A stretch of 14,368 nt of DNA from a virus (taxonomy: Duplodnaviria > Heunggongvirae > Uroviricota > Caudoviricetes), in IMG/VR virus record IMGVR_UViG_2541047946_000011. One strand, written 5' to 3'. Below the pieces are notes generated by a model, which saw only the letters and a list, made by a program, of their open reading frames with translations, was not told the origin of the DNA and did not search any database. Position numbers and translations under genes: made by a program. Below are positions 4,447-14,368 of this stretch, piece after piece; the stretch's first letter is position 1; every line of letters begins with the position of its first letter.

Positions 4447-4537
4447 TAGACTGGCCCCCTGAATCACCAGACAACCAATATCACTTATTTAAGTGATAGT
4501 CTTAATACTAGTTTTTAGGCTAGTCATTGGAGAGCAG

Positions 4538-4903
4538 ATGATTGATGTCTTAGGACCGGAGAAACGCAGACGGCGTACCACACAGGAAAAGATCGCAATT
4601 GTTCAGCAGAGCTTTGAACCAGGGATGACGGTCTCCCTCGTTGCCCGGCAACATGGTGTAGCAGCCAGCCAGTTATTTCTCTGGCGTAAGCAATACCAGG
4701 AAGGAAGTCTTACTGCTGTCGCCGCCGGAGAACAGGTTGTTCCTGCCTCTGAACTTGCTGCCGCCATGAAGCAGATTAAAGAACTCCAGCGCCTGCTCGG
4801 CAAGAAAACGATGGAAAATGAACTCCTCAAAGAAGCCGTTGAATATGGACGGGCAAAAAAGTGGATAGCGCACGCGCCCTTATTGCCCGGGGATGGGGAG
4901 TAA
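4538..4903 (+). CDS. insC: IS2 transposase OrfA (InsC)
   Basis: [56 protein letters not shown]... is recognisably IS2 InsC. ATG at 4538 with GGAG at 4529-4532. The track ORF from 4493 includes IS-end sequence upstream of the real start. Confidence 0.9.
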
Positions 4904-5766
4904 GCTTAGTCAGCCGTTGTCTCCGGGTGTCGCGTGCGCAGTTGCACGTCATTCTCAGACGAACCGATGACTGGATGGATGGCCGCCGCAGTCGTCACAC
5001 TGATGATACGGATGTGCTTCTCCGTATACACCATGTTATCGGAGAGCTGCCCACGTATGGTTATCGTCGGGTATGGGCGCTGCTTCGCAGACAGGCAGAA
5101 CTTGATGGTATGCCTGCGATCAATGCCAAACGTGTTTACCGGATCATGCGCCAGAATGCGCTGTTGCTTGAGCGAAAACCTGCTGTACCGCCATCGAAAC
5201 GGGCACATACAGGCAGAGTGGCTGTGAAAGAAAGTAATCAGCGATGGTGCTCTGACGGGTTCGAGTTCCGCTGTGATAACGGAGAAAAACTGCGAGTCAC
5301 GTTCGCGCTGGACTGCTGTGACCGTGAGGCACTGCACTGGGCGGTCACTACGGGCGGCTTCAACAGTGAAACAGTACAGGACGTCATGCTGGGAGCGGTG
5401 GAACGCCGCTTCGGCAACGAGCTTCCGGCGTCTCCAGTAGAGTGGCTGACGGATAATGGTTCATGCTACCGGGCTAATGAAACACGGCAGTTTGCCCGGA
5501 TGTTGGGGCTTGAACCGAAGAGCACGGCGGTGCGGAGTCCGGAGAGTAACGGCATAGCAGAGAGCTTCGTGAAAACGATAAAGCGTGACTACATCAGTGT
5601 CATGCCCAAACCAGACGGGTTAACGGCAGCAAAGAACCTTGCAGAGGCGTTCGAGCATTATAACGAATGGCATCCGCATAGTGCACTGGGTTATCGCTCG
5701 CCACGGGAATATCTACGGCAGCAAGCCAGTAATGGGTTAAGTGATAACAGGTGTCTGGAAATATAG
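4861..5766 (+). CDS. insD: IS2 transposase OrfB (InsD; DDE integrase domain, normally made as an InsCD fusion by -1 frameshift)
   Basis: [77 protein letters not shown]... is recognisably IS2 InsD. It overlaps insC in the -1 frame; slippery AAAAAAG lies at about 4854-4860. Confidence 0.9.
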
Positions 5767-5777
5767 GGGCAAATCCA

Positions 5778-5782
5778 CCAGA
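5778..5782. repeat. IS2 target-site duplication, right copy (CCAGA)
   Basis: Identical to 4442-4446. Confidence 0.8.
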
Positions 5783-6119
5783 CCTCTGACCGAGACCTGA
5801 AAGATAATATTCAGGTGATTGATAATGCAACCAATCGCATCCGTAAGATGAATGGTTATACATACACGCTTAAAGAAAACGGGATGCCTTACGCTGGTGT
5901 TATCGCACAGGAAGCCTTAGAAGCAATTCCAGAGTCCGTAGGCTCTACGATAAAATATAGGGACGGTGGTAGCGGATCTGAAGGCGAAGAAGGTGAACGG
6001 TATTACACTGTAGATTATTCTGGTGTTACTGGCTTGCTTGTTCAGGTAGCCAGAGAGTCAGACGACAGGATAACAGCACTGGAAGAAGAAAACGCAGAAT
6101 TAAGACAAAGATTATCTGC

Positions 6120-6127
6120 AATTGAGG
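6120..6127. repeat. IS66-family target-site duplication, left copy (AATTGAGG)
   Basis: The 8-bp AATTGAGG immediately precedes the GTAAGCGT terminus at 6128 and recurs at 8660-8667 after the opposite terminus. An 8-bp duplication is typical of the IS66 family. Confidence 0.75.
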
Positions 6128-6212
6128 GTAAGCGTAAACTGACCGCCGTATGTAGCCATCAGACGAGAATTGGTAACTTAGACGCCCATCTGATATAGAC
6201 GGACATCTAAGT

Positions 6213-6638
6213 ATGGAATTACAGGACTGGCGAAAAGAACCTCGTAAAAACTATTCGAATGAATTCAAACTTCGTATGGTGGAACTGGCATCACAACCTG
6301 GAGCTTGTGTTGCACAGATTGCACGTGAAAATGGCGTCAATGATAATGTTATTTTCAAATGGCTCAGGCTCTGGCAGAACGAAGGGCGTGTTTCGCGGCG
6401 TCTTCCGGTAACGACCTCTTCTGACACTGGCGTTGAATTATTACCTGTAGAAATAACGCCGGATGAGCAGAAAGAACCTGTGGCGGCCATTGCGCCGTCT
6501 TTATCCACTTCCACTCAGACCAGAGTCAGTGCCAGTTCCTGCAAGGTGGAATTCCGTCACGGTAACATGACGCTGGAAAATCCATCGCCAGAGCTGCTCA
6601 CAGTGTTGATCCGTGAACTGACCGGGAGGGGAAGATGA
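6213..6638 (+). CDS. tnpA: IS66-family accessory protein TnpA (orf1)
   Basis: MELQDWRKEPRKNYSNEFKLRMVELASQPGACVAQIARENGVNDNVIFKWLRLW... is typical IS66 orf1; its stop overlaps the tnpB start. Confidence 0.85.
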   Translation: MELQDWRKEPRKNYSNEFKLRMVELASQPGACVAQIARENGVNDNVIFKWLRLWQNEGRVSRRLPVTTSSDTGVELLPVEITPDEQKEPVAAIAPSLSTSTQTRVSASSCKVEFRHGNMTLENPSPELLTVLIRELTGRGR

Positions 6639-6985
6639 TCTCACTCCCATCAGGTACCCGTATCTGGCTCGTTGCCGGCGTTACCGATATGCGTAAATCC
6701 TTCAACGGACTGGGAGAACAGGTACAACATGTGCTGAATGATAATCCCTTCTCCGGTCACCTGTTTATCTTCCGTGGCCGACGGGGTGACACCGTCAAAA
6801 TTCTTTGGGCTGATGCTGATGGTCTGTGCCTGTTCACCAAACGCCTGGAGGAAGGCCAGTTTATCTGGCCTGCGGTACGTGACGGCAAGGTATCCATTAC
6901 CCGCTCGCAACTGGCAATGCTCCTCGATAAGCTGGACTGGCGTCAGCCAAAAACATCCAGCCGTAACTCACTGACAATGTTGTAA
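6635..6985 (+). CDS. tnpB: IS66-family accessory protein TnpB (orf2)
   Basis: MISLPSGTRIWLVAGVTDMRKSFNGLGEQVQHVLNDNPFSGHLFIFRGRRGDTVKILWADADGLCLFTKRLE... is the highly conserved IS66 orf2. Confidence 0.9.
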   Translation: MISLPSGTRIWLVAGVTDMRKSFNGLGEQVQHVLNDNPFSGHLFIFRGRRGDTVKILWADADGLCLFTKRLEEGQFIWPAVRDGKVSITRSQLAMLLDKLDWRQPKTSSRNSLTML

Positions 6986-7015
6986 AAAACTCCTGACCGC
7001 ATTATAAAAACGGTC

Positions 7016-8629
7016 ATGAGTCAGAAATACCTCATTCGCATCGCAGAGCTGGAAAGGTTGCTCTCTGAGCAGGCTGAAGCCCTCCGTCAGAAAGACCAGC
7101 AACTGAGTCTGGTTGAAGAGACGGAAGCCTTCCTGCGCTCTGCACTGACACGTGCCGAAGAAAAGATCGAAGAAGATGAACGGGAAATAGAACATCTGCG
7201 GGCTCAGATAGAAAAACTGCGCCGGATGCTGTTCGGTACCCGTTCTGAAAAACTGCGTCGTGAAGTTGAACTGGCTGAGGCTCTGCTGAAACAACGTGAA
7301 CAGGACAGCGATCGTTACAGTGGGCGGGAAGACGATCCTCAGGTTCCCCGCCAGTTGCGACAGTCGCGCCATCGTCGTCCGTTACCGGCACACCTTCCCC
7401 GTGAAATACACCGCCTGGAGCCAGAAGAAAGCTGTTGCCCGGAGTGTGGCGGTGAGCTGGATTATCTGGGGGAAGTCAGCGCTGAACAGCTGGAACTGGT
7501 GAGCAGTGCCCTGAAAGTGATCCGCACAGAACGGGTAAAAAAAGCCTGTACAAAATGTGACTGTATTGTTGAAGCACCGGCGCCGTCCCGCCCGATAGAG
7601 CGTGGTATCGCGGGCCCCGGATTACTTGCCCGCGTGTTAACGGGAAAATACTGCGAACATCTGCCACTGTATCGTCAGAGTGAAATCTTTGCCCGCCAGG
7701 GTGTCGAACTGAGCCGGGCCTTACTCTCCAACTGGGTTGACGCGTGCTGCCAGTTAATGACACCGGTGAATGATGCCCTGTACCGTTATGTAATGAACAC
7801 CCGCAAGGTTCACACTGATGACACACCGGTAAAGGTACTGGCACCGGGTCAGAAAAAGGCGAAAACAGGGCGTATCTGGACGTATGTCCGGGATGATCGC
7901 AATGTGGGTTCGTCATCTCCTCCAGCGGTCTGGTTCGCGTACTCGCCGAACCGGCAGGGGAAACACCCGGAGCAACACCTCCGCCCCTTCCGGGGTATCC
8001 TGCAGGCGGATGCGTTCACAGGTTACGACAGGTTGTTCAGTGCAGAACGTGAAGGTGGTGCACTGACAGAAGTTGCGTGCTGGGCCCATGCCCGGCGAAA
8101 AATCCACGATGTATACATCAGCAGCAAAAGTGCGACGGCAGAAGAAGCCCTGAAGCGAATCAGTGAACTGTACGCCATCGAGGATGAAATACGGGGATTA
8201 CCGGAGTCAGAGCGTCTTGCCGTCAGGCAGCAGCGAAGCAAAGTGTTACTGACGTCGCTGCATGAATGGATGGTGGAGAAGAATGGTACGCTGTCGAAAA
8301 AATCCAGACTGGGCGAAGCGTTCAGCTATGTACTGAATCAGTGGGATGCCCTCTGTTATTACAGTGATGACGGTCTGGCGGAGGCGGATAATAATGCTGC
8401 GGAAAGAGCGCTTCGTGCAGTCTGTCTCGGAAAGAAAAACTTTATGTTCTTTGGCAGCGATCACGGCGGCGAGCGTGGAGCACTGTTGTACGGGCTGATC
8501 GGCACCTGCCGTCTGAACGGTATCGATCCGGAAGCGTATCTGCGCCATATCCTGAGCGTACTGCCGGAATGGCCTTCCAACCGAGTTGACGAACTCCTGC
8601 CATGGAACGTAGTACTCACCAATAAATAA
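7016..8629 (+). CDS. tnpC: IS66-family transposase TnpC (orf3)
   Basis: 537 aa with an N-terminal coiled-coil/leucine-zipper region, a CxxC...CxxC zinc-finger-like motif (CPECGGE...CTKCDC) and a DDE-type core, as expected for IS66 transposases. Confidence 0.9.
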   Translation: MSQKYLIRIAELERLLSEQAEALRQKDQQLSLVEETEAFLRSALTRAEEKIEEDEREIEHLRAQIEKLRRMLFGTRSEKLRREVELAEALLKQREQDSDRYSGREDDPQVPRQLRQSRHRRPLPAHLPREIHRLEPEESCCPECGGELDYLGEVSAEQLELVSSALKVIRTERVKKACTKCDCIVEAPAPSRPIERGIAGPGLLARVLTGKYCEHLPLYRQSEIFARQGVELSRALLSNWVDACCQLMTPVNDALYRYVMNTRKVHTDDTPVKVLAPGQKKAKTGRIWTYVRDDRNVGSSSPPAVWFAYSPNRQGKHPEQHLRPFRGILQADAFTGYDRLFSAEREGGALTEVACWAHARRKIHDVYISSKSATAEEALKRISELYAIEDEIRGLPESERLAVRQQRSKVLLTSLHEWMVEKNGTLSKKSRLGEAFSYVLNQWDALCYYSDDGLAEADNNAAERALRAVCLGKKNFMFFGSDHGGERGALLYGLIGTCRLNGIDPEAYLRHILSVLPEWPSNRVDELLPWNVVLTNK

Positions 8630-8659
8630 GCGTCAATACGGTGCTCCGTTGACGCTTAC

Positions 8660-8667
8660 AATTGAGG
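8660..8667. repeat. IS66-family target-site duplication, right copy (AATTGAGG)
   Basis: Identical to 6120-6127. Confidence 0.75.
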
Positions 8668-8693
8668 CGGCGCTTGCGTCTAAATAATATTAA

Positions 8694-8716
8694 GGGGCCG
8701 AGCGCCCCGTTTTATT
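8694..8716 (+). terminator. Putative intrinsic terminator after the reconstructed tail-fiber gene
   Basis: GGGGC (8694-8698), loop CGAGC, GCCCC (8704-8708), then GTTTTATT. Lies directly after the TAA at 8685-8687. Confidence 0.5.
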
Positions 8717-9017: not shown

Positions 9018-9057
9018 ACATAAAAAGCTGCAGTATCTTGCCATGACAAGTTACTGC
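9018..9057 (-). terminator. Hairpin with T-run on the minus strand (putative terminator closing the minus-strand cargo genes; convergent with the 8724-9017 gene)
   Basis: GCAGTATCTTG (9030-9040), loop CCATGA, CAAGTTACTGC (9047-9057): an 11-bp stem with one mismatch. On the minus strand the hairpin is followed by AGCTTTTTATGTTT. Confidence 0.45.
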
Positions 9058-9199
9058 GGATGGCTGGTGAACTTCCGATAGTGCGGGTGTTGAATGATTT
9101 CCAGTTGCTACCGATTTTACATATTTTTTGCATGAGAGGATTTGCACCTCCTCCCACCGATCCTCCATGACTTTACGCCACTGTCTCTATGGCTGCTAT

Positions 9200-9214
9200 G
9201 TGCCAGAAGCGGAC
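9200..9214. repeat. 15-bp direct repeat GTGCCAGAAGCGGAC, copy 1 (flanks the 271-aa gene)
   Basis: Exact 15-mer also at 10253-10267; the flanking bases are partially similar (TTCATTAGAT vs ATTACTAAGAT). Confidence 0.7.
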
Positions 9215-9262
9215 TTCATTAGATTCTTTGTTTTTTGTGTTAATATACTTACAATCCCATCA

Positions 9263-10078
9263 TCAACTAACAACCCAATCATCAGATAATATATCACTGA
9301 TATTGAAAATATAGGTATGGTTATTTTTACCATCTGAAATGACGATTTTTTTTAAGTTGAATCTTTCTGATATGATATGCGTTGCAAATTGTGGGATTAT
9401 TAAAAACAAAGCCTCTACCTTACTGATTAATTCAATGTTGACTTTAGGTCTGAAGTTTGCATCATGAACCACTTTGTGCCTAATGTAAAATGCTTCCTCT
9501 ATGAGGGCTCTCCAGTCTGGAAATATATTTTCTATCGATAAACCTTGGGAAATTTGGCCACTCAGACCGCAAGGAGATATATTAGTTGTACATATGTAGT
9601 TTAAAAAACTCTCACCCCACATGCCATTATATGCTTCTTCAAGGTCGTTTAAGTTTTGAAAGTTAAAGCTTTTACTCAATAACTCTGATAGATTTATCTC
9701 AGTGTTTATATTGATAGATGTTTCTGTTCTCATTTTAGATAGTAGTGTTGTAATTCTAGATTCATCAACTGAATGCACGAAAACAAAAACGTCTCTAAAA
9801 TATGTTTCCCAGCAACTGATTAGAAATACAAAATATTGTCGATATGCTGTTTTATAAATATCTATTTTCTTATCTTTCGTTGAAATAAGTGAATGCATAA
9901 GTCGACAATTTTCTGCAAAATTTAGTAGGAAAGACATTGAGAAGTCTTCTATAGCTCCTCTTGATTCGCGAAGAGATAGCAATTCATCAATAATTTTTTT
10001 ATTGATTTTCCTAATCTTTTTCAATTGCATGCCTCGTTTTTGCTTAAGTAAAGTTGATTTTGGAGTTTCGTCAATCAT
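9263..10078 (-). CDS. Hypothetical 271-aa protein, strongly AT-rich; HEPN-like Rx4H motif (possible Abi-like RNase)
   Basis: Long minus-strand ORF, visibly lower GC than its neighbours, Lys/Ile/Asn-rich. Contains ...EEAFYIRHKVVHDANF... (R-x4-H) in the C-terminal half. No other family recognised by eye. Confidence 0.6.
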   Translation of the reverse strand: MIDETPKSTLLKQKRGMQLKKIRKINKKIIDELLSLRESRGAIEDFSMSFLLNFAENCRLMHSLISTKDKKIDIYKTAYRQYFVFLISCWETYFRDVFVFVHSVDESRITTLLSKMRTETSININTEINLSELLSKSFNFQNLNDLEEAYNGMWGESFLNYICTTNISPCGLSGQISQGLSIENIFPDWRALIEEAFYIRHKVVHDANFRPKVNIELISKVEALFLIIPQFATHIISERFNLKKIVISDGKNNHTYIFNISDILSDDWVVS

Positions 10079-10267: not shown

Positions 10268-10554
10268 ATTACTAAGATAGTAACGTATCAAACGGTGGGA
10301 CAAGTCATGCCAAGTGCGGAAGTGGCTAACAACCATCTGTGTTGTTTAACGGGGAACAGGTCATTCCATTGACCCGATCATTTATGTTGCGCTGACGCTT
10401 AGGTGATAAAAAGCCGCCTATGCCCGTCTATCTTTGGGGATCCGCAATGAAGTTGATTGTGAGGTTATTAGGCTAGGTCTTCTCATTTATAAGTTGTTGA
10501 AGTAGCAACGAATTATCGAGCGATTTATCCCGATTAAATGTCTCACTATTACTC

Positions 10555-11679
10555 TTAATCGGTAAATTCATAGTTTGGCCGCATTGAGAAACGCCACAGA
10601 GGCAGGCCTCCCCCTTTGTAATCATCAGGGATGGTTACCGTGAAAAGTCTGACATTCTGCCGGGTGTCAACTGACCTGATCTGGCTGTCGTGTACAGTCT
10701 GCTCGTTAAAGGCCGACGTGACCAGCGAACTCAGCGTACCTATAAAGTCGAAACCCTGTCTTTTGTAATTTTCGTCGTCTTCCGGGGAAAATGTGTATCG
10801 GATGCTCTCAAGCTGACCATCAGTGAATATTGCCTCCGATCCGGGGCAGAGCCACTCTCCGTAGCGCATCAGATGAAACGCCGTGTTCATTTCAAATTTA
10901 TCCGTTACTTGTCTGTCATTGCAGTAAATTTTAATCTCGCCAATTGTAAAATGGGCGATGCCTTCGGGACTAACTGAAACTTCTTTGGTCCGGTCGGGGA
11001 TAAGCTCAAAAACCAGATCGGGTTCTGTTGCTATCGATAGGTCGCCCAGCAGGTACATCTCACTTTTTGCGAGCGCCGAGGCCGGCGTCAAGGTATGTTC
11101 ACGCTCTAGCTCCTTCATTGAGGAGCGTGCAACCAGCGCCCACCGGCGCAGCATCCTGATGTAGATGGCATAATAAACTGGAATACCATGGAGCTCACCG
11201 TACTTTTCAACCTTATCACTGTACGATTTCTTCAGGCGATAATCGTCAGCCACGTCATCCGCGTTAAAGTTTTTTACTTCCACAAAGATCTGACGGCGAT
11301 CCTTCAGTATAATGCGATAGTCAGGTGCCACCAGATCGGGATCGGCTGACATCAAGTCTCCGGCGTCTTCCTGTTTAAGAAACTGGCAGTGGTTCAGTGC
11401 GGCGCAAACGTGTTTAAATAGGTTTTCTATTCTTTTCCCGTTCAGCAGAATTGGATTCTGATGGGAAGCGATTAATGACGTGGTGACCTTTTGTATAAAG
11501 TCATCCTGGTGCTCGGGGTTTTTAATATCGTAATTATAGATCTGGCCCAACGAGGAAAAAAGCTCAAAGGCTTCAAATCGTTCGGGATTCCTCTTGATTC
11601 TTTCCATTAATGACTCCGCAGCTAATAAATACAACGAAATGAGATCACTTGTTTCTCTGAAGTTACCTGAAAACTGCAT
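10555..11679 (-). CDS. Hypothetical 374-aa protein with a PD-(D/E)xK nuclease-like motif (candidate defense effector)
   Basis: Minus-strand ORF starting 69 bp downstream of the FRG gene stop. Contains ...LVAPDYRIILKDRRQIFVEVKNFNADD..., i.e. a D in a hydrophobic strand followed 15 residues later by E-V-K, the spacing and context of restriction-endonuclease-fold active sites. No strong Shine-Dalgarno before the first ATG, so the start is uncertain. Confidence 0.7.
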   Translation of the reverse strand: MQFSGNFRETSDLISLYLLAAESLMERIKRNPERFEAFELFSSLGQIYNYDIKNPEHQDDFIQKVTTSLIASHQNPILLNGKRIENLFKHVCAALNHCQFLKQEDAGDLMSADPDLVAPDYRIILKDRRQIFVEVKNFNADDVADDYRLKKSYSDKVEKYGELHGIPVYYAIYIRMLRRWALVARSSMKELEREHTLTPASALAKSEMYLLGDLSIATEPDLVFELIPDRTKEVSVSPEGIAHFTIGEIKIYCNDRQVTDKFEMNTAFHLMRYGEWLCPGSEAIFTDGQLESIRYTFSPEDDENYKRQGFDFIGTLSSLVTSAFNEQTVHDSQIRSVDTRQNVRLFTVTIPDDYKGGGLPLWRFSMRPNYEFTD

Positions 11680-11748
11680 TCTGCACGGCGATTAAAGCGG
11701 CTATGGGCCCACGCTGGCACACAGGCGTGCCGTGCGACTAAAGCGCTA

Positions 11749-13119
11749 TCAGATTCGTCCATCGTATAGTTTTGCAATTTCCGTAGCAGCCTTCTCAATG
11801 CCGGGGTACACCGTGCTTTCGTTAATGCCAAGGCGGCTCAGTTGCTGCATCAGATGCTCTTTGTTTCTAATAACAAGCTTTTTGATGTTCAGCGTACTGA
11901 GTCCCGTTTCCGGTAGGTCTACGTTTTCACCAAAGAGCAGGAAAGCGCCTGATTGGGACGAAATACGTGCGTTACTGAGCCTACCTTTGACCACAACAAT
12001 TTTACTTAGGTGGACCGGATCGATGATGCTTTTGAAATAGGACTTTTCATCGCGGATCAGGTGTAGTAGTTGTCCGCACTCTTCAGATTCGTTAAACGCC
12101 GGAATGGTGAGATTAGTTTTCAGGCTGCTTTTGAAACGAGAGGGAAGACGGGAAAGATTGGCTATGCAACTTACGGTATCCGAGTCGAAAAACTTAATTT
12201 CACTTTTGGGCGTCGTCAGAATAATGACGTTCCCGTCAATTTCATGATTATTTTCATCGTGCTTGATTTTAGAGCAGGCAAAATATAGTGCGATCAAGGG
12301 GTTTGTTGATACATCAAGCAGGCGTGTGGGTAGGCCATAGTGTTGCATGCGCACGAGTTTATCTAGCATATACCGATCGTCTTTGAACTCGGCGGGCTGC
12401 ACGGTCAGCAGCTCTGTTATCATGTCCGATTCGTGATGGCGGTAGCGATAGTTACCCTGAGTATCCTTGCGGAACAGTGAGGGTTCCAGTTGGTAGCTGA
12501 TGTCCGAGTGACCGCGGTAAAATACCTCTTCATCGTTTCCCTGTGTATGATCGAGTATCACCTGCAAGTACTGATTGATATTCGCAATGATCTCTAGTTC
12601 TTCATTATTCTCCGGTGCTTCCGCACTCGCTGTTGCGGGCTCAACATTAGAATAGCCTTCAAGGCCTAAAACACGCAGAATCTCATTTACGGAAATCTCT
12701 TTGACCGCCCAGAACGTTCTGTTTAGTCCGAAACTGCCCAGCTCCAGCTCACTTACGTACTCTTTATCGCTGGTTAAGGGCTTGTAGCCGATATCACTGG
12801 TAATCTCATAATCAAACGCTAAAACTTTTTCTCTGTTATACACGGACGTACTTATCTTGCTGATTTTTCCTAAGCGGATGTGGCTGAAATAACCTATTTT
12901 TTCATTATCTTCATCGAATTCAATTTCCGGCTCGGACATAAATACAACGGGCAGTTCCTGAAGAAAATGATAGGTTTTTTCAGTCAGGGGAAGCAATCTG
13001 CTTCTAAGAGACTCTGGCGTGGATTCGAAGAGTCGCGACACAGGGAAAGAGTCATTGCCACTGGGTTCAGAAAAAAAAGTGTAGTATTTGGGGGTTCCGA
13101 CAACGATAAGATTCAGCAT
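11749..13119 (-). CDS. Hypothetical 456-aa protein with an FRG domain (candidate defense sensor/partner), first gene of the minus-strand pair
   Basis: Contains FYRGHSDISYQLEPSLFRK, ...MQHYGLPTRLLDVSTNPLIALYFAC and ...NARISSQSGAFLLFG, which match the FRG-domain hallmark motifs as I remember them. The N-terminal ~190 aa are unrecognised. GAGGA lies 8 nt upstream of the ATG at 13119. Confidence 0.75.
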   Translation of the reverse strand: MLNLIVVGTPKYYTFFSEPSGNDSFPVSRLFESTPESLRSRLLPLTEKTYHFLQELPVVFMSEPEIEFDEDNEKIGYFSHIRLGKISKISTSVYNREKVLAFDYEITSDIGYKPLTSDKEYVSELELGSFGLNRTFWAVKEISVNEILRVLGLEGYSNVEPATASAEAPENNEELEIIANINQYLQVILDHTQGNDEEVFYRGHSDISYQLEPSLFRKDTQGNYRYRHHESDMITELLTVQPAEFKDDRYMLDKLVRMQHYGLPTRLLDVSTNPLIALYFACSKIKHDENNHEIDGNVIILTTPKSEIKFFDSDTVSCIANLSRLPSRFKSSLKTNLTIPAFNESEECGQLLHLIRDEKSYFKSIIDPVHLSKIVVVKGRLSNARISSQSGAFLLFGENVDLPETGLSTLNIKKLVIRNKEHLMQQLSRLGINESTVYPGIEKAATEIAKLYDGRI

Positions 13120-13596
13120 ACTTGCGATCCTCGCATAAGTTAAGTTTCTCTCTCATCATGCCAGACTTGATAATTATTTAAACATCAGCGCTGCTATTTA
13201 TATTTCACACCTTTTTGATCCGAAACGACACTGCCATCGGTAAGCCCGGATGATACATTCTGAAAATTCATCAGAAAAATTTACATCACGCTTTACTCCT
13301 GACGTATATCAGCACTAACGTGCCATTGCGCACGCGCTAGCTATTTAGTAGCGCGTTTCGGCGAAAAGAGATTCGGTAGTCAATGACTATATTTCGCTCA
13401 TAACAGACATTCACTACAGTTGTGGCAGAAAGGTATGCATGCTGGGTGTGGGGAAGTCGTGAAAGAAAAGAAGACTGCTTCGCCGTTTGTCGTCACTGCT
13501 ATCTTCTTATTGCTTATGAAGGTCGTAGTGGGGCACACAAAGCTTTGCACTGGATTGCAAGGCGTTGTGCTTCTCTTGAGTGCGACATGTTTTTAT

Positions 13597-13640
13597 GTCA
13601 AAAAATTAGCGCAAGAAGACAAAAAATCACCTTGCGCTAA
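13597..13640 (-). terminator. Lambda tI/sib-like hairpin terminator in the attR P-arm-proximal region
   Basis: Perfect 10-bp inverted repeat TTAGCGCAAG (13606-13615) / CTTGCGCTAA (13631-13640) with a 15-nt loop. On the minus strand it is followed by TTTTTTGAC. The surrounding sequence (GCGCTAATGCTCTGTTACAGGTCACTAAT...) matches my memory of the lambda sib/tI region. Confidence 0.6.
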
Positions 13641-13809
13641 TGCTCTGTTACAGGTCACTAATATCATCTAAGTAGTTGATTCATAGTGACTGCATATGTT
13701 GTGTTTTGGAGTATTATGCAGTCTATCATTTAGACTAAAACTCTCATAACACACTGATATTAATGATTTTTACTGTTTATCGTTCAGCTTTTTTATACTA
13801 ACTTGAGCG
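13641..13809 (+). other. attR (P arm, core, B'): lambda-type attachment site; core GCTTTTTTATACTAA at 13787-13801
   Basis: The P arm (CTGTTACAGGTCACTAATATCATCTAAGTAGTTGATTCATAGTGACTGCATATGTTGTGTT) closely matches the lambda attP P arm, including arm-type Int-site-like GGTCACTAAT and AGTGACTGCAT. The 15-bp core is identical to lambda. The right flank CTTGAGCGAAACG is the bacterial attB B' side. Confidence 0.85.
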
Positions 13810-13891: not shown

Positions 13892-14368
13892 TTAACTAAA
13901 CATCGCAGTAATCGAGGCGCTTGCCAGAGAGTGGAAATGAACGTTAAACCCGACCATCGCGCCGCTGGCACCTTCATCGACATCAATACGTTCTATATCC
14001 AGCGCGTGAACGGTAAAAATGTAGCGATGAGTTTCGCCTTTCGGCGGTGCTGCGCCATCGTACCCGGTTTTACCAAAGTCGGTACGCGTCTGCAAAACGC
14101 CGTCTGGCATTGCTACCAGACCAGAGCCAAACCCTTGCGGTAATACGCGGGTATCAGCGGGTAAGTTAACAACTACCCAGTGCCACCAGCCGGAGCCGGT
14201 TGGCGCATCCGGGTCGTAGCAGGTGACAACAAAACTTTTCGTTCCCGCAGGAACATCATCCCACGCCAGATGCGGTGAAATATTATCGCCATCGTAACCC
14301 ATGCCGTTAAAGACATGACGATGCGGCAATTTATCGCCATCGCGCAGATCGTTACTGATGAGTTTCAT
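13892..14368 (-). CDS. ybhB: PEBP-family protein YbhB (UPF0098 / kinase-inhibitor-like), host chromosomal gene next to attB-lambda
   Basis: Complete 158-aa minus-strand ORF (MKLISNDLRDGDKLPHRHVFNGMGYDGDNISPHLAWDDVPAGTKSFVVTCYDPDAPTGSGWWHWVVVNLPADTR...). Its start codon is the last three bases of the window. Recognised as E. coli YbhB, whose chromosomal position beside the lambda attachment site agrees with the attR call. Confidence 0.85.
   Translation of the reverse strand: MKLISNDLRDGDKLPHRHVFNGMGYDGDNISPHLAWDDVPAGTKSFVVTCYDPDAPTGSGWWHWVVVNLPADTRVLPQGFGSGLVAMPDGVLQTRTDFGKTGYDGAAPPKGETHRYIFTVHALDIERIDVDEGASGAMVGFNVHFHSLASASITAMFS

Follow-up and report, generated by a model that had tools for sequence, protein, structure and literature searches.

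FRG-domain and nuclease-fold genes in the b region of a lambda-type prophage: one defence system or two one-gene modules?

Do two adjacent genes in a prophage accessory region constitute one defence system, or do they only share a site? The question is raised by virus record IMGVR_UViG_2541047946_000011 (Caudoviricetes), whose 14,368-nucleotide stretch, analysed as a whole and referred to as the window, carries two co-oriented minus-strand open reading frames (ORFs): one for a 456-aa FRG-domain protein (11749-13119) and, downstream, one of 374 aa (10555-11679) for a protein with a PD-(D/E)xK nuclease fold. An earlier note, made from the sequence alone, described them as a candidate for an undescribed two-gene module, composed of a sensor-like protein and a nuclease effector on an insulated transcription unit. 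Both ORFs exist, and their defence-type context is borne out by their neighbours in other genomes, which include defence systems. Judged by co-occurrence, however, the pairing is not a new system. With moderate confidence, the region is read here as a stack of independently mobile single-gene accessory cassettes in the b-region hotspot of a lambda-type prophage, in which the two genes are two one-gene modules. The domains, folds, conserved motifs, distribution, and cassette limits behind this reading are observed, while a role in defence, the ligands, the enzymatic activities, and independent action are inferred.

Co-occurrence and mobility of the two genes

An FRG gene, identified with a hidden Markov model of the FRG family, adjoins the nuclease gene in four of 47 nuclease loci, namely the window type, an integrase island (L013), a P2-like prophage (L015), and Aliidiomarina. 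Of 41 species loci with the nuclease, 40 lack an adjacent FRG gene, and three further contexts contain the nuclease alone: a Pectobacterium integrative element (83% identical), the end of a Morganella lambdoid prophage, and an Aeromonas island. FRG orthologues of 76-89% identity, in turn, occur without the nuclease. Solitary FRG genes neighbour Hachiman in Klebsiella and E. coli, and others are located in a separate E. coli island, in phage Tritos, and in a P2-like phage after gene A, a position that corresponds to old/tin of P2. Among complete E. coli genomes, 47 encode the FRG protein and 28 the nuclease, and the FRG family is also much the larger (at least 2797 clusters versus 43). In neighbour-joining trees, paired and unpaired FRG proteins interleave: the paired protein of L015 is 89% identical to the solitary one of L058, and the paired protein of L013 is 86% identical to the solitary ones of L014 and L057. 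The two gene trees are incongruent, as the window FRG protein is closest to that of L015 and the window nuclease to that of L013.

The boundaries of homology are consistent with this distribution. A transferable cassette of 2.6 kb (10543-13185, minus strand) contains both genes; its homology to L013 and L015 is continuous in blastn at 76-78% nucleotide identity, running from 13165/13185 to 10551/10543. FRG-only cassettes extend from about 13185 to 11747-11748 and end at the FRG stop codon, while the nuclease-only cassette (11645-10548) keeps the last 38 bp of the spacer before its ATG. As judged from these alignments, the cassette arose by juxtaposition and spreads as a unit, yet its genes have separated repeatedly, so that either one is likely to function by itself. 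With few shared loci, incongruent trees and clean single-gene boundaries, neither co-occurrence nor co-evolution bears out an obligate two-gene system.

The spacing of the pair depends on the start of the nuclease gene. On sequence evidence, the gene almost certainly begins at ATG 11607 (Met25 of the 374-aa ORF) and encodes 350 aa (10555-11607, minus strand; the maximal ORF reaches 11679). This start is assigned because 35 of 39 homologues in the alignment (A1) begin at that methionine, RefSeq annotates the 350-aa start, and a GGAG located 6 nt 5' of ATG 11607 is kept in paired and nuclease-only loci; none precedes ATG 11679. Database matches are mostly about 350 aa long and cover 93-94% of the longer ORF. 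The gap from the FRG stop to the nuclease start is therefore 141 bp (11608-11748, minus strand), and the length of 374 aa and the gap of 69 bp given in the earlier note have to be corrected.

The insulation of the transcription unit is not borne out, as promoter-like and terminator-like sites are at background (9 versus 10.6 and 5 versus 4.1 in shuffled sequence, respectively) and the intergenic RNA has no significant structure (z-score 0.2). A promoter scan gave no convincing site for the FRG gene. The host gene ybhB is co-oriented and located directly upstream of the cassette across attR, with 13120-13786 in between, which makes host read-through geometrically possible. In phages PhiR11_1 and PhiR11_1_star, an insertion sequence (IS), IS2 (InsC/InsD), lies in the same orientation about 40 bp upstream of the FRG start (7161-8389 of PV340548, L002; about 13160 of the window). 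It is situated inside the presumed promoter region of the cassette and could therefore silence or drive the FRG gene.

Several observations weigh against independence of the two genes and would fit a true cooperative two-gene system in a sub-lineage of the Enterobacterales, co-transcribed from upstream of the FRG gene, with the FRG protein as a sensor or first effector and the nuclease as a second effector or amplifier. The pair is one contiguous block of fixed order and orientation, homologous in the spacer too, in three element types (lambda b region, P2-like prophage, and integrase island), and cooperation in that sub-lineage is therefore possible. All 28 nuclease-carrying complete E. coli genomes also have the FRG gene, and consecutive accessions in Morganella suggest the same adjacency. 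The terminator scan found no terminator-like site in the spacer, so co-transcription of the two genes is possible. An independent adjacency of FRG and nuclease, with the genes in convergent orientation, exists in Aliidiomarina. The literature searched contains no experiment on defence by either gene, which weighs against the main reading as a whole. Yet the closest relatives carry either gene alone (FRG at 86-89%, nuclease at 83% identity), the gene trees disagree, and no conserved partner accompanies the nuclease in 40 of 41 species; moreover, the FRG protein already has a sensor-type domain of its own, and the solitary nuclease gene retains a Shine-Dalgarno sequence and a leader of 38 bp. 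Cooperation is thus considered unlikely. The preferred reading remains that of two one-gene modules, joined into the 2.6-kb cassette in some Enterobacterales elements, each of which would work without the other. Adjacency in a prophage hotspot needs a co-occurrence test before it is read as a multi-gene system.

The nuclease-fold protein

The assignment of the downstream protein to the PD-(D/E)xK fold is supported by an alpha-beta-beta-beta-alpha-beta core with a conserved D...(D/E)xK, by an AlphaFold model with a predicted local distance difference test (pLDDT) score of 91.4, and by structural matches of that model. The catalytic-type motif Pro95-Asp96-Tyr...Glu110-Val-Lys112 (350-aa numbering; 11272-11325, minus strand) is conserved in 40 sequences; the PDY...EVK motif reported earlier is thus present and invariant, with a spacing of 12 residues, not 15. 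Other residues invariant in the 40 sequences are Gly57, Arg59, Lys78, Glu80, Asp81, Gly83, Val109, and Val111, and Glu61 is nearly so. The best structural matches are the Holliday-junction resolvases Hjc (archaeal) and RecU (bacterial), with alignments covering only about 120 residues at 8-14% identity; the protein scores below every Pfam threshold. The N-terminal helical bundle is unplaced, and so is the fold of the confidently modelled C-terminal half (about residues 175-350; 10558-11085, minus strand).

Searches of Pfam, NCBIfam, PHROGs, PADLOC, and the PDB, with the single sequence and with a profile, returned nothing usable. When all 40 family members were scanned, only sub-threshold matches to NOV_C, Hjc, and PDDEXK_10 appeared. 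The window protein does not match the Hjc family (PF01870), and three of the 40 family members reach E 0.04 at best. The family comprises 43 clusters among 5.8 billion, to which a genome scan adds 41 species, from Gammaproteobacteria to Gemmatimonadota, Firmicutes, and Chloroflexi. In these 41 species loci, the two genes on either side of the nuclease (147 neighbours) include no conserved family. The neighbours of the family comprise Septu PtuA/B, Gabija GajB, pAgo with SIR2, AbiEii, DRT, CAP12-TIR, DUF4238, PIN proteins, methylases, and transposases; by gene content, the context is that of a defence island or mobile element.

A restriction-modification reading was rejected, as the RefSeq annotation contains no methyltransferase within about 10 kb on each side; a methylase is conserved beside the nuclease in none of the 41 loci and accounts for only two of the 147 neighbours. 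Shedu and other named nuclease systems were set aside as well, for want of a PADLOC match. Shedu SduA is a single-protein PD-(D/E)xK defence nuclease, stand-alone in defence islands. By analogy, the window protein may be comparable, being likewise stand-alone and combining a restriction-endonuclease fold with an extra domain; its domain order, however, differs from that of SduA. The protein is also longer, at 350 aa, than Hjc and RecU (about 120-170 aa), having a helical bundle at its N terminus and a further 175 residues as a C-terminal domain, and it is encountered in defence islands and mobile elements instead of among recombination genes.

On the preferred reading, the protein is an autonomous Hjc/RecU-like PD-(D/E)xK enzyme, in which an Hjc-like core would catalyse metal-dependent DNA cleavage and the C-terminal domain would supply target recognition or regulation. 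It would cut invading or replicating phage DNA, and branched or replicating DNA is a plausible target because of the resolvase-like core.

The FRG protein and its N-terminal domain

The upstream gene encodes an FRG-domain protein, as stated in the earlier note: every motif that the note quotes occurs in it (FYRGHSD at residue 200, PSLFR at 213, QHYGLPTRLLD at 259, and NARISSQSGAF at 383), and Pfam FRG (PF08867) matches residues 198-289 (E 4.6e-22, 79.2 bits, cut-off 25). Fourteen PADLOC models of PDC-S15 match the protein, the best over residues 171-452 (E 7.3e-99), and the match to phrog_4962 spans its full length. The FRG/ADP-ribosyltransferase (ART)-like effector region (residues 171-452; 11764-12609, minus strand) is delimited by the span of the best PDC-S15 match and by invariant residues: Arg202, Gly203, and His204; Gln259, His260, Gly262, Pro264, Thr265, Arg266, Leu267, Leu268, and Asp269; Asn383, Arg385, Ser388, Gln389, Gly391, and Phe393. 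The family is large, with at least 2797 homologue clusters (E ≤ 1e-10).

The first proposal of FRG as an effector reportedly came from Burroughs & Aravind in 2020. The gene cannot be called undescribed: the profile searches place it in the existing single-gene PADLOC candidate family PDC-S15, and the FRG domain has been proposed as an antiviral effector of the ART superfamily (PMC9503650). Like PDC-S15, the gene is found singly in defence hotspots. PDC-S15 is a computational candidate, whose best-matching models cover the FRG part and leave the N-terminal domain outside; adjacency to a nuclease is not part of its definition. The protein is therefore a member of a known candidate class, and one that is experimentally uncharacterised in the literature searched, in which no functional study of PDC-S15, of phage PhiR11_1, or of FRG in defence turned up.

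In the AlphaFold 2 model (pLDDT 84.7), structural matches of the FRG domain include proteins of the ART fold, such as TreX (6.5), KptA/Tpt1 (6.0), AcrF11, diphtheria toxin (5.8), ART2.2, and RES toxins. Sequence searches gave no relative in NCBIfam or the PDB. The domain may be compared with immune effectors of the ART superfamily (RES toxins and DarT; TIR/SIR2-type NADases are functional analogues), although its sequence similarity to characterised ARTs is undetectable.

The N-terminal domain (about residues 1-155; 12655-13119, minus strand), described earlier as unrecognised and about 190 aa long, is indeed absent from Pfam, and its sequence profile matches neither Pfam nor PDB sequences. 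Its model, however, probably adopts a PUA-like fold of the EVE/YTH/ASCH type. The top structural matches are the modified-base readers EVE, YTH, ASCH, and McrB-NTD; the match is modest, and Foldseek ranks the same PUA-like proteins first without significance. A search of 1.84 billion representatives with the domain profile retrieved 925 clusters of proteins between 80 and 870 aa long. Fusion partners were tallied over 60 multi-domain matches: the CAP12/Pycsar-type TIR domain is the most frequent (21), followed by FRG (9) and by protein kinase, Abi_C (HEPN), and TIR_2 (6 each). Other partners are TIR, SEFIR, PNP_UDP phosphorylase, AbiJ_NTD3, Schlafen AlbA_2, EAD2, and a DncV-like cyclase. PADLOC assigns the fused C-terminal parts to CBASS-type TIR and phosphorylase effectors, PD-T4-6-type kinases, and PDC-S35. 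In a PN-superfamily effector, the domain replaces the N-terminal region of the effector model itself, the sole case in which profile coordinates show a replacement.

Such swapping is the pattern of a sensory or regulatory module whose immune effectors can be exchanged, and the 456-aa protein is therefore self-sufficient in architecture. The division of labour suggested earlier, with a sensor-like protein and a separate nuclease effector, is not supported, one reason being that the FRG protein has its own sensor-type domain. The combination of a reader and a toxic effector in one polypeptide resembles that of modification-dependent restriction enzymes with PUA-superfamily readers (e.g., EVE-HNH VcaM4I, MspJI, and McrB N-domains). 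The effector of the FRG protein, however, is FRG/ART-like and not a nuclease, and the likeness lies in a modest fold match without membership at the sequence level. As a one-protein sensor-effector of the PDC-S15 class, the protein might bind, through its PUA-like domain, a nucleic-acid or nucleotide ligand produced on infection. Ligand binding would control the C-terminal FRG domain, which could consume NAD+ or ADP-ribosylate a target and thereby cause abortive infection.

Two unusual arrangements of these domains were observed. In Aliidiomarina shirensis (L022, 8236-10446, minus strand), the N-terminal domain and FRG are encoded in consecutive ORFs (310 and 403 aa), convergent with the nuclease homologue, which represent either a split or a frameshifted gene. 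A rare 760-aa fusion (clusters P0265 and P0356; 5001-7283 in L062) combines a CBASS-type CD-NTase (residues 1-307), the N-terminal domain (315-444), and FRG (478-750), with transposases on both sides of the gene. The fusion hints that the domain is able to read a cyclase product; its close unfused relatives have no cyclase neighbour.

That the genes are not anti-phage, and render another service to the prophage or host, is improbable. For example, the nuclease could resolve Holliday junctions during phage recombination, and the FRG protein could act in NAD-dependent nucleic-acid end-processing or as a toxin (in addiction or interbacterial competition). Such roles would agree with true resolvases being the best structural matches of the nuclease, with KptA/Tpt1 and secreted ART toxins among the matches of the FRG domain, and with a literature that, as searched, holds no experimental defence data. 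They fit less well with the extra domain and helical bundle of the nuclease, which Hjc lacks, and with its presence next to Septu, Gabija, pAgo, and AbiE in islands of the chromosome that are not phage. The FRG gene, for its part, is located in defence hotspots (after gene A of a P2-like phage, beside Hachiman, and in the lambda b region), and its N-terminal domain is elsewhere fused to TIR, Abi_C, and CBASS-type effectors. A secretion signal or immunity gene was not seen, although no systematic test was made. Still less probable is an orphan FRG effector that answers a cyclic-nucleotide signal from a cyclase encoded elsewhere (of the CBASS/Pycsar type) instead of sensing phage directly, since the CD-NTase fusion and the position of the N-terminal domain ahead of CBASS-type TIR and phosphorylase effector domains, which speak for it, are set against the rarity of that fusion (two clusters), the absence of a cyclase from the window, its flanks, the loci of the close unfused relatives and every FRG locus examined, and the lack of a match to any PADLOC CBASS effector model. 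A CBASS/Pycsar operon was rejected on the same absence of a cyclase, the rare fusion being the only link.

Both the nuclease family and the N-terminal domain are uncatalogued in the libraries searched (for the nuclease, Pfam, NCBIfam, PHROGs, and PADLOC), though they are of familiar kinds. It is conceivable, if tentative, that the nuclease is a new stand-alone anti-phage family, that the N-terminal domain is an undescribed PUA-like sensor, or both, and that the two products of the cassette additionally cooperate. The nuclease with its unplaced C-terminal domain may represent such a family, distributed from Proteobacteria to Firmicutes, Gemmatimonadota, and Chloroflexi; current defence finders would then be overlooking a whole family of resolvase-like nucleases. 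The N-terminal domain may link exchangeable effectors (FRG, TIR, kinase, HEPN, and phosphorylase) to the recognition of modified nucleic acid or of a nucleotide signal, and its swaps point to a common, unnamed sensor module in many immune effectors. If so, it would mediate modification- or signal-triggered abortive infection, in parallel to type IV restriction. The locus could also provide a first experimental handle on FRG/PDC-S15, a widespread predicted NAD+-linked effector without a published phenotype in the literature searched.

The prophage setting and a third accessory gene

The window is 100% identical to E. coli chromosomal sequence and covers the right end of a prophage of the lambda type, which is inserted at the lambda attB beside ybhB-bioA. 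As the earlier note inferred, the genes occupy an accessory hotspot: the lambda att core GCTTTTTTATACTAA of the attR junction is present at 13787-13801 (plus strand; exact match, 0.01 expected by chance), annotated host ybhB (13892-14368, minus strand) adjoins attR and is followed by bioA, and gpJ and then the tail-fibre genes lie to the left of the cargo. Between the tail-fibre module and attR are three minus-strand genes in place of lambda ea47/ea31/ea59, and homology to lambda is confined to the flanks (about 9054-9300 and 13400-13805). Phage PhiR11_1, from ECOR13, has the same three-gene block. Scans of the window with Rfam and for tRNA genes returned nothing.

Other cargo occupies this hotspot in related phages. 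At L057, for instance, the b-region slot contains FRG, Hachiman, and a GIY-YIG protein. The equivalent slot of lambda (24190-27742) encodes ea59, annotated as an AAA ATPase, and ea31, annotated as an HNH endonuclease, so that the b-region slot is a cargo hotspot across lambdoid phages; the ea59-ea31 pairing presumably recalls defence pairs of an ATPase and an HNH protein such as Septu.

The third gene of the block (9263-10078, minus strand) lies outside the finding of the earlier note. It encodes a 271-aa protein, putatively of the RiboL-PSP-type HEPN-like kind, as suggested by a match to Pfam HEPN_RiboL-PSP below the cut-off (E 7.6e-6, 26.4 bits, cut-off 28.4), by an RHKVVH (Rx4H) motif at residue 200, and by the name HEPN domain protein in RefSeq and UniRef. 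It is co-oriented with the FRG and nuclease genes in the same b-region block. Its GC content is 31.5%, as against 45-48% for the other two; it is missing from the cassettes of L013 and L015, and it occurs on 637 contigs, more than either neighbour. It is probably a module of its own, of the ribonuclease type, that acts in defence or as a toxin.

Elements of the IS3 and IS66 families (tnpA, tnpB, and an ISEc23-like transposase) interrupt the side tail-fibre gene at about 4500-8700 of the window (5539-9630 in L012), so that a tail-fibre defect is probable for the prophage of this strain.

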